Origin: a virus | Taxonomy: Duplodnaviria > Heunggongvirae > Uroviricota > Caudoviricetes | DNA length: 6,981 bases | Strand: one strand, 5' to 3' | Virus record (IMG/VR): IMGVR_UViG_3300011226_000011 | Coordinates: 1 to 6,981 of that record | Part shown: positions 1 through 6,981 of the stretch, piece by piece | Layout: each line of letters begins with the position of its first letter | How positions within the stretch are numbered: position 1 is the first letter of the stretch | Position numbers and translations under genes: made by a program | The notes under the pieces: generated by a model | What the model saw: the letters and a program-made list of their open reading frames with translations, nothing else | Told to the model about the DNA's origin: nothing | Databases searched by the model: none

Positions 1-99
1 AAGTCAGGTGTAAGTATAAGTGCCATTGCCCGGGAATTCAAAACCTCGCGGCAAACCATTTTAAGAGCCAAAGCAAAACTTCAGACACCTGACATATAA
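1..99 (+). CDS. 3' end (last 32 codons) of a serine recombinase / DNA invertase-like gene (Pin/Gin/Hin-type C-terminal HTH); partial, 5' end outside window
   Basis: Frame 1 is open from nt 1 to TAA at 97-99 and reads [32 protein letters not shown]. The G-[VL]-S-x-S-x-IA-[RK]-x-[FL]-x-[VT]-SR-x-T-[IL]-x-R pattern is typical of the C-terminal helix-turn-helix of resolvase/invertase-family serine recombinases. It is convergent with tfa, as pin is in Rac/e14-type prophages. Only 32 aa are visible, so the call is tentative. Confidence 0.45.
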
Positions 100-105
100 A
101 AAATA

Positions 106-120
106 ATCTCGGTGTGAGAT
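106..120. terminator. Weak stem-loop (atctc-ggtgt-gagat) between the convergent recombinase and tfa genes; possible bidirectional terminator
   Basis: A 5-bp inverted repeat at 106-110/116-120 is preceded by an A-rich run at 98-105 (a T-run when read on the minus strand downstream of tfa). The stem is short and AT-rich, so confidence is low. Confidence 0.2.
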
Positions 121-196
121 GCTTTACGTCTTCCAAGCCCCCCTCCTTGCCGTAAATGGAAAGATACATCTAATTATAGAATTTATATGTTTTACC

Positions 197-772
197 CTAC
201 GGCAGTGCTGGCCATTCAATATCCTGTGCAGTTGACGTATCAACACGGTTCAGCAATACCCGATACTTTTTCCATGCTTCCAGCAACGAGATTTCTTCCT
301 CCGTTGCAATTTCCAGATCTGCAGCATCCTGAAGCGGCGCAATATGCTCACTGGCTACCTGCATCAGGTTGTTTTTTGTTTCTTCCGCCTCCCGGATCCG
401 GAACAGTTTTTCTGCTTCCGTATCCTTCACCCAGGCTGTGCCGTTCCACTTCTGAAACTCCCCTTCCGGCGATAACCAGGTAACATTTTTCGGTAACGGA
501 CCGAGTTCAGAAATAAATAACGCGTCGCCGGAAGCCACGTCATAAACCGTTTTACCCCGATGATCTTCAACGAGATGCCACGATGCCTCATCACTGTTGA
601 AAACAGCCACAAAGCCAGCAGGAATATCTGGTGGTGCAATATCGGTACTGTTTGCTGGCAGACCTGTATGAGGCGCAATATATGCGTCACCTTCACCAAT
701 AAATTCATTAGTTCCGGCCAGCAGATTATAAATTTTTATGGTCCGTGGTTGTTCACTCATTCTGAATGCCAT
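197..772 (-). CDS. tfa: Tail fibre assembly protein Tfa (lambda Tfa / T4 gp38-like chaperone), 191 aa
   Basis: ORF 197..772 (ATG = complement of 770-772, TAG = complement of 197-199). The translation [54 protein letters not shown]...[14 protein letters not shown] matches lambda Tfa as I recall it, nearly residue for residue. Its start overlaps the stf stop (TAATG), as in lambda. Confidence 0.9.
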
Positions 773-3700
773 TATGCAAGCCTCACAATATAGTTAAATG
801 CGATGTTTTTGACGGTGTTTTCCGCGTTACCAGCAGCGTTAACGGTGATGGTGTGTCCATGTGAACCAATCGCAACGGAGTGCGTATGAGCACCAATACC
901 GACAGTATGCGCGTGTGCACCTGCAGATGCTGCTGTGCCGGACAGTGAATGGCTATGATTACCATCTGTACTGGTATTCGCTAACCACCCCGTAGACATA
1001 CCTACTGAGCCTTGTACACCCCAGGTATTTTGACCTGAGCTTGTATAACCATATTGATAAGTATCTTTAAAAACACTGGGGTTAAATCGACGGCCATCTC
1101 TATGGCTGTGATTACCAGCTGCATTCGTGCTGCCACTTAAACTATGGGTATGCGCACCAGTGTTATTCGTGGATTTAGTGCCGTAATCAAACGACGATGT
1201 GGTTTTCGTCCCCAAATCTGTACTGGATGCGCTGGCGCTGTGGGTATGCGATTTAATGCCGTCCTGTTCCTGAGACAATACGGCCCGACCACTGGCAGGT
1301 TTGCCCTTAATCGTCCAGCCACGCATATCAGGGATCACGCCTGACGGATAAGCGGCCGCAAGTTTCGGGTAAGCAGATTTGTCAAAAGTCTGCCCCTGCA
1401 TCAGGGCATAACCAGACGGAACGGTATCTGATGGCCACGGGATTGGTGCGCCGACTGGGTAGCTTTCTGGTGGAAGATTTTTCGAGGTATAAACTTCTGC
1501 CCAGTCATCCTCAAAACCATAACCGTCTCTTGAAGAACGGTAGAACAGACCACCATTTCTGTAATGCGCCTTCATCTGCAAGGTCCGGCAACTTCCGACT
1601 CCGGTATAGAAGTTAACCAGAATATAGCTGTCGCCAGAGCGGGTGACATTATAAGCGCCTGATTCGGCATTCCAGGGAACGCCACCATCCGCATCGGCAT
1701 ATGTATCCGTTGCCCTTCTGGCAAAAGCAGCCACATGCGCGGCGGTTAAAGTAATATCTTTGGAACCATCAAACTCAACACCAGAAACCCGTCTTGGCGT
1801 TTGCAGCTTTGTTGCTGTTAATGCATTACCGTTCAGACTTGCGGACAGTTTGGTTCCAATAACCAGTTCGCCGGTTGCGTTATCAATAGCAAACGGTCTT
1901 AATGTATTCCAGCCACCATAAACATCACCTTGATTGGTAAGCAGCAGGTAAGTTTTAGCGCCATCATTACGCCATAATGCCCCATACTCCCCACCTATCA
2001 TTCGAATCTGATTACCACCACGCGCTACAATTTCGTCTGTGGCAAAAAGTTTTTTGCACGACAAGTTATCGTTAACGATTAACGAATAAGACTCATAAAA
2101 ACCACGCCCACTCTTAAAATCAAGGATAACGTCCGCCGCGATACATTCAGTCGCCGGATTTGTTGCCCCAAACTTATAGGTCGTATCATTAACAACGAGA
2201 TCAGCACCAGGTGCGGATATTGACAGGCCATCTTCGATAAACGCAAAAACAGGGAAAGCAGCGCCATCAACATAGAACACAGAGCGCAAATCATCGCCCT
2301 TATTACTCATCATTATTGAGTGGATGGCTCGTTCATTGTTTTGATATTGCCAGAACATTCCATAAGCATAACGCCCCCTGTCAGTCCAGCCACCAGGCAT
2401 AACAAATCCGTTAAACTCGCAGTTATTCATCGGATCGCCTGCGGTTCGCGTTGCCGTGGTGATAATGACCCTTGATGCCAGTTCGCTTACTGAGCCAGCA
2501 GAACGCATAACAACAACAGGGTAATATTTTCCAGATGTTGCACCTGCAGGAGCGTTAACCCGCACATAACGCATACCACGCTTATCAGCAAAGTCTGTTT
2601 TACTGACCGCGTTAATGTTGTTCAGGAAGCGTCCCTTATCGGGTATATCAGCGCCGTTCTGGTCTTTCTGCAGACGTTTCTCTGCATTGTCATAGGCTGA
2701 TTTTACTGCCTTTGGCGTTGCCGCCAGCGTTTCAGACGTACTGTTGGTCGCACTGCTGAGCTGTACTATCCCCTTTTTCGTCGTACTTGCATCCTCAAGC
2801 GCCACGGCGGATGCAATATCCTCTGCCCGTTTTGCCGCTGTCTCGGCGCGCGTTGCCGCGGATTCCGCCGTACTTTTGCTCTGTGCTGCCGCCGTCGCAC
2901 TGCCAGCTGCCTCTGTCGCCTTCGTGGATGCCGTCGTGGCGCTGCCCTTCGCTGCGGACGCTTGTCTGGTCGCCTCATCTTTTGAAGCAGACGCCGATGA
3001 TGCCGATGACGCCGCCGAACTGGCGGACGATGCGGCAGCCGTTTTTGAGGATTCTGCGCTGGTTTCCAACGCTTTCGCGTTCGTCTCGGATGTCTTCGCT
3101 GCGGAAGCAGACCTTGCTGCTGCGCTGGCCTGTTCAGTGGCTTCGCCAGCCTTCGTTGTGGCTGTTGAAGCAGACGATGCGGCGCTTTCTGCCGATTTTC
3201 CGGCGGCGGTGGCACTGGCTGAGGCCTGCCCGGCACTTGTTGACGCGGCACTGGCAGACGACGCAGCCGCTGTTTTTGAGCCTGCCGCAGCCGAGGCGCT
3301 CTGTCCCGCTGCCGTTTCAGAAGACCTGGCGTTTGTCTCAGACGTCTTTGCCGCCTTCGCGGAATTGCCTGCCGCCGTTGCCGAGGAAGCGGCACTACTG
3401 GCGCTTGATGATGCGTTCGTTTCTGATGATTTCGCTGCCTCTTTTGAGGCCGCCGCATCCCGGGCTGAGGTGGCTGCTTCTGACGCCTTCGTGGTCGCGG
3501 CGGATGCAGAAGTGGCTGCTGATTGTTGTGACGCTGCCGCATTCGTTTCTGACGTTTCCGCCGCCCCGGCACTGGTAGCTGCCGCCCTTTTTGAGGGCTC
3601 TGCAGCAGCAGCACTTTTCGATGCTTCACTGGCCTTTGTTGATGCCGTTCCTGCGCTGGAAGATGCTGACTGAGCCGACGACGCGGCCTGTCCGGCTGAC

Positions 3701-4173
3701 GTGCTGGCTGCGCGTGCTGAGCCTGCAGCATCAGTCGCATGGGTTGCCGCCTCACGGGCTGATGTGCTGGCATCGCTGGCTGACTTCTTCGCGGCTGCCG
3801 TGTTCTGTGCCACCGCGGACGCGTTACGCGCCACCTCTTCCACCATCAGTTCAAAACGGCGCAGTGCCTCAGGACGGGCATCATCCTCCGTCATGGCACC
3901 GAGAAAATCATTCAGCNNNNNNNNNNGTCGGGAATCTTCATACACGGTGATGGTCCCGGCATGTGACGGCGGGAATCCCTCCACCAACAGAATAACGCTG
4001 TACTGCCCGTACTCAACGTCCATGCTGTAACGCCCGGCTTCATCCGGATTTTCTGAGGCCAGCGTGTTCACCACCACCGTGGTGCTGTTACGTTTTGCTT
4101 TCAGCTGGATTGTGCAGTTCTGTACCGGTTTTCCTGTGCCGTCTTTCAGTACACCTGAAATCTTTACTGCCAT
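772..4173 (-). CDS. stf: Side tail fibre protein Stf, long form (1133 aa); N-terminus lambda-Stf-like, Ala/Ser-rich repetitive shaft, large central domain, C-terminal HxH-motif tip domain
   Basis: The ORF track gives 772..4179, but the codon at 4177-4179 is GTG; the likely true start is ATG at 4171-4173 ([26 protein letters not shown]..., the lambda Stf N-terminus), preceded by GGGGTG as a possible SD. The C-terminus ...[49 protein letters not shown] matches the lambda Stf / T4 gp37-type tip. Stop TAA = complement of 772-774. The gene contains a 10-N gap at 3917-3926 that stays in frame. Confidence 0.9.
775..1251 (-). other. Stf C-terminal tip domain with repeated HxH motifs (SHTHS, GAHTHS, GNHSHR, GNHSHS, GAHAHT, GAHTHS, SHGHT)
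   Basis: Seven HxH motifs occur in the last ~159 residues of the stf translation. In T4 gp37-type fibre tips such motifs coordinate metal ions along the trimer axis (established for T4 gp37; inferred here by sequence pattern). Confidence 0.6.
2740..3830 (-). repeat. Low-complexity, GC-rich Ala/Ser/Thr-rich coding repeat region in the stf shaft, with degenerate tandem units (e.g. AAKTSETNA recurring)
   Basis: The translation between about aa 118 and 480 is dominated by A/S/T with recurring motifs ([58 protein letters not shown]). DNA-level near-repeats such as ttcgtctcggatgtcttcgctgcgg (~3078), gtttgtctcagacgtctttgccgcc (~3338) and ttcgtttctgacgtttccgccgcc (~3543) are visible. The region is open in several frames on both strands. 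Confidence 0.7.
3917..3926. other. Run of 10 N (assembly gap or masked bases) inside stf
   Basis: Literal nnnnnnnnnn in the sequence; the stf frame is maintained across it (EDSR-XXXX-LNDFL). Confidence 0.95.
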
Positions 4174-4182
4174 ATTCACCCC

Positions 4183-4210
4183 ACAAAAAAGCCCGCCTGA
4201 ACCGGCGGGG
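4183..4210 (-). terminator. Rho-independent terminator downstream of lom (minus strand), immediately upstream of the stf RBS
   Basis: GC-rich inverted repeat cccgcc (4192-4197) / ggcggg (4204-4209) with a 6-nt loop, followed on the minus strand by a U6 tract (complement of A6 at 4185-4190). It lies 27 nt after the lom stop. Confidence 0.5.
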
Positions 4211-4237
4211 TGTCATTACACTGTGTTACCTGGCTAA

Positions 4238-4856
4238 TCAGAATTTATAACCGACACCCACGATGAAACCGTCAGTGCGCCAGTCACCACTGCCGGAGCC
4301 TTCATAAGCAATATCAATGGCCACGGATTCGGTCGGGTTAAACTGCACGCCAGCCCCCCACGCCAGAGACGTGTTGCTGTGGCGACCGTCATCACTTCCG
4401 GTCAGCACATCGTGCTTTTTCCCCTTGTTGTCAGTTACGCGAAGATAATCCCCGGAGAACGTCGACACACGGCTGTAAGCTACACCCGCCATCGCATACG
4501 CGCTGAACCATTCATTCACGCGCACAGACGGCCCCGCCATTACGCTGAACCAGCGGTTACGAACGGAATCTTCATGCCAGCGGGTATCGCTGTAACGGGT
4601 CAGCTGGCGATTCTTGTCTCCTGCATAGCTGAATGACGTCACCAGCCCCAGTGTGTCCGTAAACTCATAACGGTATTTCACGTTAATCCCGTTCAGATCA
4701 TCGCTGCCGGGGACGTTCGTCGAGGCATGAAGATACCCCGCGCTCAGCGTGGACTGATGTTCAGACGCCCATGCAGGCGCACCGGATACGGCCAGACAAA
4801 TNNNNNNNNNNCAGACAAATGGCTGCGGACAAAATTGCTGCACAAACTTTACGCAT
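4238..4856 (-). CDS. lom: Lom outer-membrane protein (Ail/Lom/OmpX family beta-barrel; lysogenic-conversion 'moron' of lambdoid phages)
   Basis: The translation ...ICLAVSGAPAWASEHQSTLSAGYLHASTNVPGSDDLNGINVKYRYEFTDTLGLVTSFSYAGDKNRQ...DGFIVGVGYKF matches lambda Lom as I recall it. The ORF-track start at 4843 (MQQFCPQ...) is an artefact of the frame shift caused by the N gap; the true start is ATG at 4854-4856 (MRKVCAAILSAAICL, a signal peptide) with a GAGAGG SD 5 nt upstream. Stop TGA = complement of 4238-4240. The 5' end is interrupted by the N run at 4802-4811. Confidence 0.85.
4802..4811. other. Run of 10 N inside the lom signal-peptide coding region, flanked by a perfect 9-bp direct repeat (cagacaaat at 4793-4801 and 4812-4820)
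   Basis: The sequence reads gccagacaaat-N10-cagacaaatggc. Removing the Ns plus one repeat copy restores an in-frame lom (AAICLAVSG). Confidence 0.9.
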
Positions 4857-4877
4857 AATTACCTCTCGCTTTTCTGC

Positions 4878-4904
4878 AATAAAAAAGGCGTCATTCCTGA
4901 CGCC
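4878..4904 (-). terminator. Rho-independent terminator downstream of J (minus strand), just upstream of lom; possibly bidirectional
   Basis: A 7-bp GC-rich stem ggcgtca (4887-4893) / tgacgcc (4898-4904) with a 4-nt loop ttcc, followed on the minus strand by U6 (complement of A6 at 4881-4886) then AUU. On the plus strand the hairpin is followed by cTTTaTT. Confidence 0.55.
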
Positions 4905-4926
4905 CTTTATTGGGGTTATAAATATT

Positions 4927-6051
4927 TCAACGAATACTGATGCCGGAAGCGGCTTTTTTGGTCACAATCACCGTACAGTCGGTGATATTGCCTGCCCCCT
5001 GATTGCCTTTCTGGAAAATCTTAAACTCCAGAGTGACGCTTCCCCTGCCACTCGGCATATCAATAACTGCACTGTAACTACCGGGAATGGCCCCTTTAGT
5101 TTCTCTGGATGCGATTAATACGCCGTTTTTGCGAACTTCAAAACCATAACCCGTGTATCGCGTGCCTCCTGGGTTATTTCCGCTCCCCGGATCGTCATAC
5201 GCTATACCGTTAAAAATAATGGGCGGAATAATAATCTGGCGGTCAAAGTTATGATCATCGCTGATGGTGACTGTAACCGTACCGTTTGGTGTTTCCGTGT
5301 TACCCCACGTACCGACTTTTTTCGGGAAGGCTTTTGATACAGCTTTAACGAAATCTCCTCTGACCTGGGTCGCCTCCAGCATGCCCTTAATCGTACAGTT
5401 CTGGTTAATCGTGACATTGTTGAGCGTTCCTGAGTTCGCATTCACACTGCCACTGATATCCGCATTTTTCGCCGTCAGTCTCCCGTCTGATGTCAGGGAA
5501 AATGCCGGAGGATTACCGCCGCTGGTAATGGTGGGGGCCGTCAGGCGTTTCAGGAACACTTCATTCATGAATATCTGATCGCCCTGACCAACAAACATCG
5601 GCTTTGTGTTGCCATTCGCAGGATTAATCATCGCAATCCTGTCTGCTGCCAGCAGCACCTGACTCTGCATGCCGTCAGGGGTGTTCTCAATACCGGCACC
5701 GATACCCGCAATATAAAGGCGTCCGTCCTGCATCTGCTGCAGCTTCACTGCCCACATGCTGTTCAGGTTATTATTTGTATCAACCTGAACCTTCTGTATC
5801 TGCTGGATCGCTGCACTCTGGTCTTCCAGTTTCTTATTGACGGTCTGTGTTATTTCATTGCTGACATCCGTTATGGACGTCCTGATTTCAGTCAGGTCAG
5901 GCGCAAGCTGACCGTTATCAATCTGCGTCCACAGCTCCTGAGCCAGATGGGTTTTCCCTATCTCGCCTTTGAAAAAATCCAGATAGCCTGATGCATCATC
6001 ACTCGGCTGACCGACAGCCTCCACGAATGCCGATTTGCCAACGGTGTTCAC
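4927..6051 (-). CDS. ORF for the J C-terminal (receptor-binding) fragment, 374 codons from a GTG start; probably a remnant rather than an independent gene
   Basis: The ORF track gives 4927..6051, but the first codon is GTG (lambda J has V at this position). There is no ATG and no obvious RBS in the 255 nt of open frame upstream of it. It is homologous to the lambda J C-terminal domain. It might be annotated as a separate tail protein in some genomes. Confidence 0.4.
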
Positions 6052-6981
6052 ACTGCGAACGTAAAAATAATAATCATGGCCCGGTTTGATATTGATACTG
6101 GCGGCTATCCAGTACAGTGCCGTACCAAGATAACGCGCGCTGGTTTCAACCTGCCTGATATCCGCAATCCGTTTTTCCGAGAACCAGAACTCAAACTGTA
6201 CCGTCGGGTCATAAACCGCAAGATGCGGCGTGGCGGTTATCTGAAAATAGCCCGGTGTCAGCTCAATCCGAGACGGCGCTGCCGGTGCGGCAATCCGGAA
6301 CGACTGTCAGCCTGTAGTTCCCCAACGCCAGTTGTGTGAAGCGGTATGTGGTTTCCGTCGTCCGGGCCGTGCTGACCAGCCGCTCACTGCCGTCGTCCGC
6401 TGTTACGGTCAGACGGAGCAGGAAGCTCACGCCCTTCACCACCTTCGGTGTGTCCCAGCGCGCCAGCACCTGATATTCCCCGCTGTCTGCGGTGACTTCG
6501 GCAGTCAGGTGCTGCACCGCTGGCGGCGTGACACCATTCACCGTGCCGCTCTGGTCGCCGTCAAAGTGCGCCCCGTTATCCACGATGGCCTCTTTTTCCG
6601 GCACATGCTGCACGGCGGTGATGGCATACGTGCCGTCGTCGTTCTCACGGATACTCACGCAGCGGAACAGTCGCTGGCGCAGCGTCGGCAGCTTCAGCCC
6701 CCACACGCTGTATCCGGCAACGCCGTCAGGAACACGGCTCACTTTTACCTTCACGCCGTCGGTGACGGACTGGACCTCCACGCTGACCGGATTGCCACTT
6801 CCGTCAACCAGGCTTATCAGCGTGGTACCGGAGGATGGCAGCGTGATTTCACGGTCGAGCTTCAGCGTCCGGGTCTGGCTGTTCACCGCCAGCACGCGCC
6901 CGCCGGTGCTGATACCCGCATAGTCATCATCGCAGATTTCAATGACATCCCCCGGTACATGGCGAAGCCCTTCCGCACCCA
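4927..6981 (-). pseudogene. J: Host specificity protein J (tail tip / central fibre), 3' ~2 kb; reading frame broken by a frameshift near 6301-6309; 5' end beyond the window
   Basis: The upstream frame (6981 down to TGA at 6263-6265) translates ...AEGLRHVPGDVIEICDDDYAGISTGGRVLAVNSQTRTLKLDREITLPSSGT...[19 protein letters not shown], which is lambda J-like, then runs into [12 protein letters not shown] and a stop. The -1 register (open from 6306 down to TGA at 4927-4929) continues the J homology: [58 protein letters not shown]...[17 protein letters not shown]...[19 protein letters not shown]. The segment equivalent to lambda RAVNAWGQQGDPASV between these two stretches is missing. Confidence 0.8.

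Follow-up and report, generated by a model that had tools for sequence, protein, structure and literature searches.

A 47-bp deletion splits the tail gene J in the sequence of a lambdoid Escherichia coli prophage

The tail gene J of a lambdoid prophage lacks 47 bp in the DNA examined here, and the two remaining parts of the gene are in different reading frames. The DNA (hereafter, the window) is a stretch of 6,981 nucleotides, positions 1 to 6,981 of the IMG/VR virus record IMGVR_UViG_3300011226_000011. We consider it probable that the lesion is a genuine, recent, strain-private inactivating deletion in the J gene of a Rac/lambda-like E. coli prophage. The other reading that has to be weighed is the loss of the 47 bp during the production of a draft assembly.

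Methods

The J sequences were aligned by using BLAST and MAFFT, and the alignments included the alleles of phage Kati, phage lambda, and E. coli STEC1588 as well as five other J alleles. For the nucleotide search of the junction, we used a 50-mer centred on it, and seeding needed a 28-base word across the junction. The reference series of J domains was FNIII-A_GpJ, Phage-tail_3, Ig_J, Ig_J_second, Phage_Tail_Tip, and Ig_GpJ_C, the N-terminal ones of which fall outside the window.

Results and discussion

The window is the distal end of a lambdoid tail module, and its main genes are all on the minus strand. J enters at the right edge, and the last 60% of the gene is present (6981 to 4927, minus strand). 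It is followed on the same strand by lom, which encodes an Ail/Lom outer-membrane protein (4238..4856; ATG at 4856), by the StfR-like side tail fibre gene stf (772..4173; intact save for a run of ten N), and by tfa, the intact gene of a tail fibre assembly protein of 191 aa (197..772). At the left end, the 3' end of a Pin-type (pinR-like) DNA invertase gene, namely, the last 32 codons and the stop, is located on the plus strand (1..99). The invertase gene and tfa are arranged tail-to-tail, as in the invertible tail-fibre segments of the Rac/e14 type, and within the window we saw no alternative C-terminal cassette of either tfa or stf.

The order J-lom-stf-tfa-pin is identical to that in Kati (PP925833) and STEC1588 (NZ_CP129263), and the whole window matches chromosomal prophages of many complete E. 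coli genomes in addition to Kati. Only phage genes are found in the window. The best matches are chromosomal prophages beside ydfK/ynaM, which the STEC1588 copy of the module also adjoins, and the free phage Kati matches equally well. When the columns of the N runs are discounted, the window differs from STEC1588 by 12 substitutions over about 6.95 kb. The Tfa protein of the window differs from that of Kati in one residue (P to A in ...DAYIAPHTG...), and its exact 191-aa sequence is absent from a collection of 15 billion proteins.

On the minus strand, the upstream J frame starts at 6979 and is continuous through residue 692. The 5' part of J (6263..6981, off the right edge) thus holds residues 467-692, 12 out-of-frame codons (6301-6266), and a premature TGA (6265-6263). 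The 3' part (4927..6303, minus strand), corresponding to residues 708-1165, lies in the +1 frame, which is readable from 6306/6303 and open to the normal J stop at 4929-4927. The two frames overlap by 42 nt (6306-6263). At the junction between the two parts (6301..6304, minus strand), 47 bp that all the relatives have are missing. In the BLAST alignment, positions 1-680 of the reverse complement of the window match Kati 6520-7199, and positions 679-6981 match Kati 7245-13525; exactly 47 bp, CGGGCGGTAAATGCGTGGGGACAGCAGGGCGATCCGGCATCGGTATC in Kati, are absent from the window. The same gap was reproduced against lambda and against STEC1588, which has an intact gpJ of 1165 aa (NZ_CP129263 3447678-3451175). 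The lost codons are 693-707, together with 2 nt of codon 708. The two endpoints share a 2-bp microhomology ('TC', window 6303-6302), so the exact breakpoint is ambiguous by 2 nt. When the 47 bp were put back, a single ORF of 699 codons was obtained, which is one residue (T506K) away from the intact gpJ of STEC1588. The 3' part of J (679-2060 of the reverse complement) is 100% identical to that of Kati.

The original prediction, made from the letters alone, was that J is split by an internal deletion that has a size of about 47 bp and is out of frame. The comparison with Kati, lambda, and STEC1588 bears this out, and the peptide named as missing, RAVNAWGQQGDPASV, is exactly the one encoded by codons 693-707. 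Alignment with lambda J and its relatives, the check that had been proposed, defined the indel as 47 bp with 2 bp of microhomology. Translation of the minus strand confirmed that the frame from the right edge ends at the TGA at 6263-6265, and the statement that the C-terminal 40% of J is out of frame agrees with our figure (residues 693-1165, or 40.6% of 1165 aa). Two details need correction, however. The stop was said to come directly after NYRLTV, but the 12 out-of-frame codons lie between them; and the downstream frame, given as -1, is +1 (equivalently -2) in the direction of translation.

An intact J gene is a single ORF of about 1130-1165 codons, whereas the ORF in the window is interrupted by the premature TGA and resumes in the +1 frame. 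In the part of J inside the window, Ig_J (partial), Ig_J_second, Phage_Tail_Tip, and Ig_GpJ_C follow one another in the order of the reference series. Judged from its sequence, the locus belongs to J by descent, but it is not intact; with its ORF disrupted relative to intact, near-identical homologues, it is probably a pseudogene.

We looked for the junction in other sequences. The 50-mer had no spanning match in 5,426 complete E. coli genomes, 50,697 phage records, and 72,556 plasmids; it gave only two partial matches of 28 bases, neither of which spans the junction. Exact scans with a 42-mer and a 24-mer in the GTDB representative genomes, IMG/VR, and the JGI metagenomes were also empty. Among the relatives listed (the best 30 matches in each collection), a 401-bp query from this region aligned in two pieces spanning 447-448 bp, which means that these relatives carry the 47 bp. 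When the junction peptide was searched against proteins, the matches were just short, broken J fragments of other assemblies, the out-of-frame tails of which are due to 1-bp indels, with the 47 bp present. Homologues in intact, functional phages that share the identical junction and are shown to make a full-length product had been named in the original prediction as evidence that would speak against it; the collections searched contain no other sequence with the junction.

Position 6861 of the window, which is also in J, has a private nonsynonymous change from ACG to AAG, the T506K mentioned above. This variant is absent from the 5,426 complete E. coli genomes (best match, 98.2%), and a 42-mer containing it was found only in a divergent (94%) J allele on the IMG/VR contig IMGVR_UViG_2917875804_000004. 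The variant could have arisen by gene conversion between J paralogues or by the mixing of paralogues in assembly.

The quality of the draft bears on whether the deletion is real. The window is interrupted by two runs of exactly 10 N, which, according to the alignment, are scaffold gaps of the wrong size and not masks. At the gap at 4802..4811, a copy of the 9 bp ATTTGTCTG stands on each side of the N; the two contigs thus overlapped at their ends, and the gap is really -9. The apparent frameshift in lom is caused by this gap alone. The gap at 3917..3926, inside stf, stands for 7 bp (CCGGTAC in Kati). By these alignments, the apparent lesions in lom and stf are scaffolding artefacts. In the output of the assembler Velvet, gaps of less than 10 bp are written as 10 N, which would be consistent with both runs. 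The two gaps indicate that the source was a fragmented draft, and the runs join three contigs of 3,916, 875, and at least 2,170 bp. Between the deletion junction and the nearest N run lie 1,490 bp; the junction hence belongs to the interior of a contig and does not coincide with a scaffold join.

This position within a contig argues for a real deletion and against the other reading, in which J is intact in the organism and the 47 bp were lost in assembly, merging, polishing, or editing, or through a chimeric read or library artefact. We consider such an artefact, which the original prediction had also raised and which the two scaffold gaps make more tangible, somewhat unlikely, although several observations are in keeping with it. 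The wrong-sized gaps mark a low-contiguity draft that is broken twice within 2.5 kb of the junction, and the 401-bp region is multi-copy in most E. coli genomes (a median of 2 places per genome, with a maximum of 14). None of the collections searched contains another copy of the junction, its flanks are 99.85-100% identical to intact alleles, and many public assemblies have technical-looking 1-bp homopolymer indels at this very spot. The rest of J, lom, stf, and tfa are intact, and there is no other decay in the 7-kb module; an artefact would look exactly alike. However, no direct repeat longer than 2 bp is present at the deletion endpoints, so a misjoin of a k-mer graph 47 bp apart would have no substrate in this allele, and nothing there would mislead an overlap graph either. 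Furthermore, gaps as trivial as -9 and +7 bp stayed open as 10 N in the assembly, with no forced joins, which suggests that there was no aggressive step of gap closing or merging. To our knowledge, short-read and 454 sequencing do not typically produce clean deletions of 47 bp, which also counts against an artefact. The deletion is thus probably present in the DNA of the organism.

In the intact allele, an imperfect inverted repeat of 10 bp (GGCGATCCGG / CCGGATTGCC) brackets the right deletion endpoint. It is located at Kati 7227-7259, which corresponds to about 6288-6297 of the window plus the deleted DNA, and its fold is not significant (z = -1.8). Promotion of the deletion by a hairpin is a weak possibility.

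In real E. coli prophages, J is very often found broken. Frameshifts, deletions, and IS insertions are described for the lambdoid prophages of O157 Sakai, and co-resident prophages complement some of these lesions (PMC2669165). An ORF of 374 aa with a GTG start (4927..6051, minus strand, in the window) is called as a separate gene whenever J is interrupted upstream of it, and this C-terminal ORF is on record as such in 63 blocks of the protein collection. The split J of the window shares the ORF with those of many assemblies, but the 47-bp deletion at codons 693-708 was found in no other genome: in the ten places that we inspected, and in the other split J genes, the lesions are 1-bp indels, IS insertions, and larger deletions.

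Within 60 bp of the site, three public E. coli assemblies (L003 at ~7775, L007 at ~7738, and L012 at ~7773) have 1-bp indels in short homopolymers (GGGGG to GGGGGG, CCGG to CCGGG, and TTCC to TTC), which split J and leave the same 374-aa ORF. The short protein records P0001, P0005, P0014, and P0015 look like the products of multiply frameshifted long-read assemblies. Many of the 'split J' calls in databases may be technical.

According to Pfam, Ig_J spans residues 610-714 of the intact protein and Ig_J_second spans residues 716-818, and the lesion falls at the end of Ig_J, bordering Ig_J_second. The upstream fragment in the window matches just profile positions 1-89 of the 104 of Ig_J. By their position along the protein, Ig_J and Ig_J_second correspond to FNIII-1 and FNIII-2 of lambda gpJ, in which the domains are arranged in the order hub domains, FNIII-1, FNIII-2, alpha-helical shaft (AHS), central straight fibre (CSF), and receptor-binding domain (RBD) (PMC11101478). 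Structures of gpJ have been solved (8IYK, 8XCI, and 8XCJ). The 3' part of J in the window encodes FNIII-2 (Ig_J_second), Phage_Tail_Tip, and the C-terminal receptor-binding Ig domain.

Loss of codons 693-707 and of two bases of codon 708 would shift the frame by +1, and translation would end 12 codons on. If the N-terminus beyond the window is intact, the predicted product has 704 residues, namely, residues 1-692 of J and 12 out-of-frame residues. In this product, the hub domains would be preserved and FNIII-1 would be largely complete, save for its last beta-strand region; nothing would be left of FNIII-2, the alpha-helical shaft, the central straight fibre, or the receptor-binding domain. 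All the parts of J that are required for tip closure, the central fibre, and receptor binding are therefore predicted to be out of frame.

We next consider whether the 3' part could still be translated. The first in-frame start past the junction is GTG 6051, which is 85 codons downstream of the junction and 212 nt from the upstream stop; it is located inside FNIII-2 and has no Shine-Dalgarno sequence upstream. Only two in-frame starts have a partial Shine-Dalgarno-like motif, ATG 5631 (AGGA, spacing 5) and ATG 5382 (AAGG, spacing 2), and both are far inside the gene. Re-initiation was rejected, as no usable pair of a Shine-Dalgarno sequence and a start codon follows the junction. A scan of 5900-6500 for promoters and terminators gave nothing relevant on the minus strand. 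Lacking both a ribosome-binding site and a start codon close by, the 3' 40% of J should remain untranslated.

The same observations bear on a functional two-piece J, in which the hub and the fibre/receptor-binding parts are made separately and assemble non-covalently. In vitro, a fragment of lambda gpJ from residue 713 onward forms a stable trimer that binds LamB (PMC11101478; PDB 8xcj, 9wca), and the break at residues 693-708 is close to this boundary. We nevertheless consider a two-piece J extremely unlikely: the C-terminal piece has no in-frame start for 85 codons, its first start is the GTG inside FNIII-2, the starts with a partial motif lie deep in the gene, the upstream stop at 212 nt is too far away for coupling, and the split arrangement is unique to this sequence.

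A programmed +1 (or -2) ribosomal frameshift, or another type of recoding, would give a full-length but internally shortened J. As a formal point, a shift inside the 42-nt overlap (6306-6263) would fuse both J frames. Such a shift would have to be +1, however, and the overlap contains no run of three or more identical bases, no slippery heptamer, and no CUU-UGA or other known +1 motif, nor is there a Shine-Dalgarno-like stimulator upstream of it. The two-frame arrangement is absent from all the collections searched, in which the homologues are single-frame with the 47 bp present, and the fused product would still miss 15 residues of FNIII-1. Programmed frameshifting, which the original prediction had left as an alternative, was therefore rejected, since neither of its defining features, a slippery site and conservation, was found; we regard recoding as barely conceivable here. 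The likeness to lambda G/GT, a programmed frameshift of the -1 type, is superficial and consists of two overlapping frames in a tail gene. Unlike G/GT, the J of the window needs +1, has neither a slippery sequence nor conservation, and is missing coding sequence.

With the 3' part of J untranslated, the prophage alone should not make tails that recognise a receptor. From the structure and genetics of lambda gpJ, we infer that it would be tail-defective. Rescue could come from a co-resident lambdoid prophage, either by recombination or by complementation. We also considered, for the case that the deletion is real, an assembly-competent, hub-only gpJ (residues 1-692) that gives tails or particles lacking a central fibre, with hosts recognised solely via the intact Stf side fibres or via a J borrowed from a co-resident prophage. 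This would be a natural 'fibre-less tip' variant of a lambdoid phage, but we think it very unlikely.

The J of the window is the same gene as that of lambda (8IYK and 8XCJ) and the 1165-aa allele of Kati and STEC1588 (in the latter, WP_000515477.1), with the same synteny and Pfam domains. In nucleotides, it is 99.7-100% identical to the Kati/STEC1588 allele, as against about 96% for lambda around the junction. It differs from all three in the absence of the 47 bp (codons 693-708) and in being split, whereas theirs are uninterrupted, and from STEC1588 in the private T506K. The module resembles those of defective lambdoid prophages, such as the Sp prophages of O157 Sakai and Rac and Qin of K-12, in which frameshifts, deletions, or IS insertions inactivate morphogenesis genes and the module is otherwise near-identical to that of functional phages (PMC2669165).

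Conclusions

Both prophage decay and an error in a draft assembly are ordinary and well documented, and nothing suggests a new mechanism; the finding carries little weight beyond annotation. With regard to annotation, the lom gene of the window looks frameshifted from a scaffold gap alone. If the 47-bp gap is an artefact, it illustrates that split tail genes in scaffolded drafts need read support before they are interpreted biologically. If the deletion is real, as we think probable, this copy of J is a pseudogene, and the prophage would be without receptor-binding tails of its own. Even so, it would still be a reservoir of intact lom, stf, and tfa genes, as well as of J segments, for recombination.
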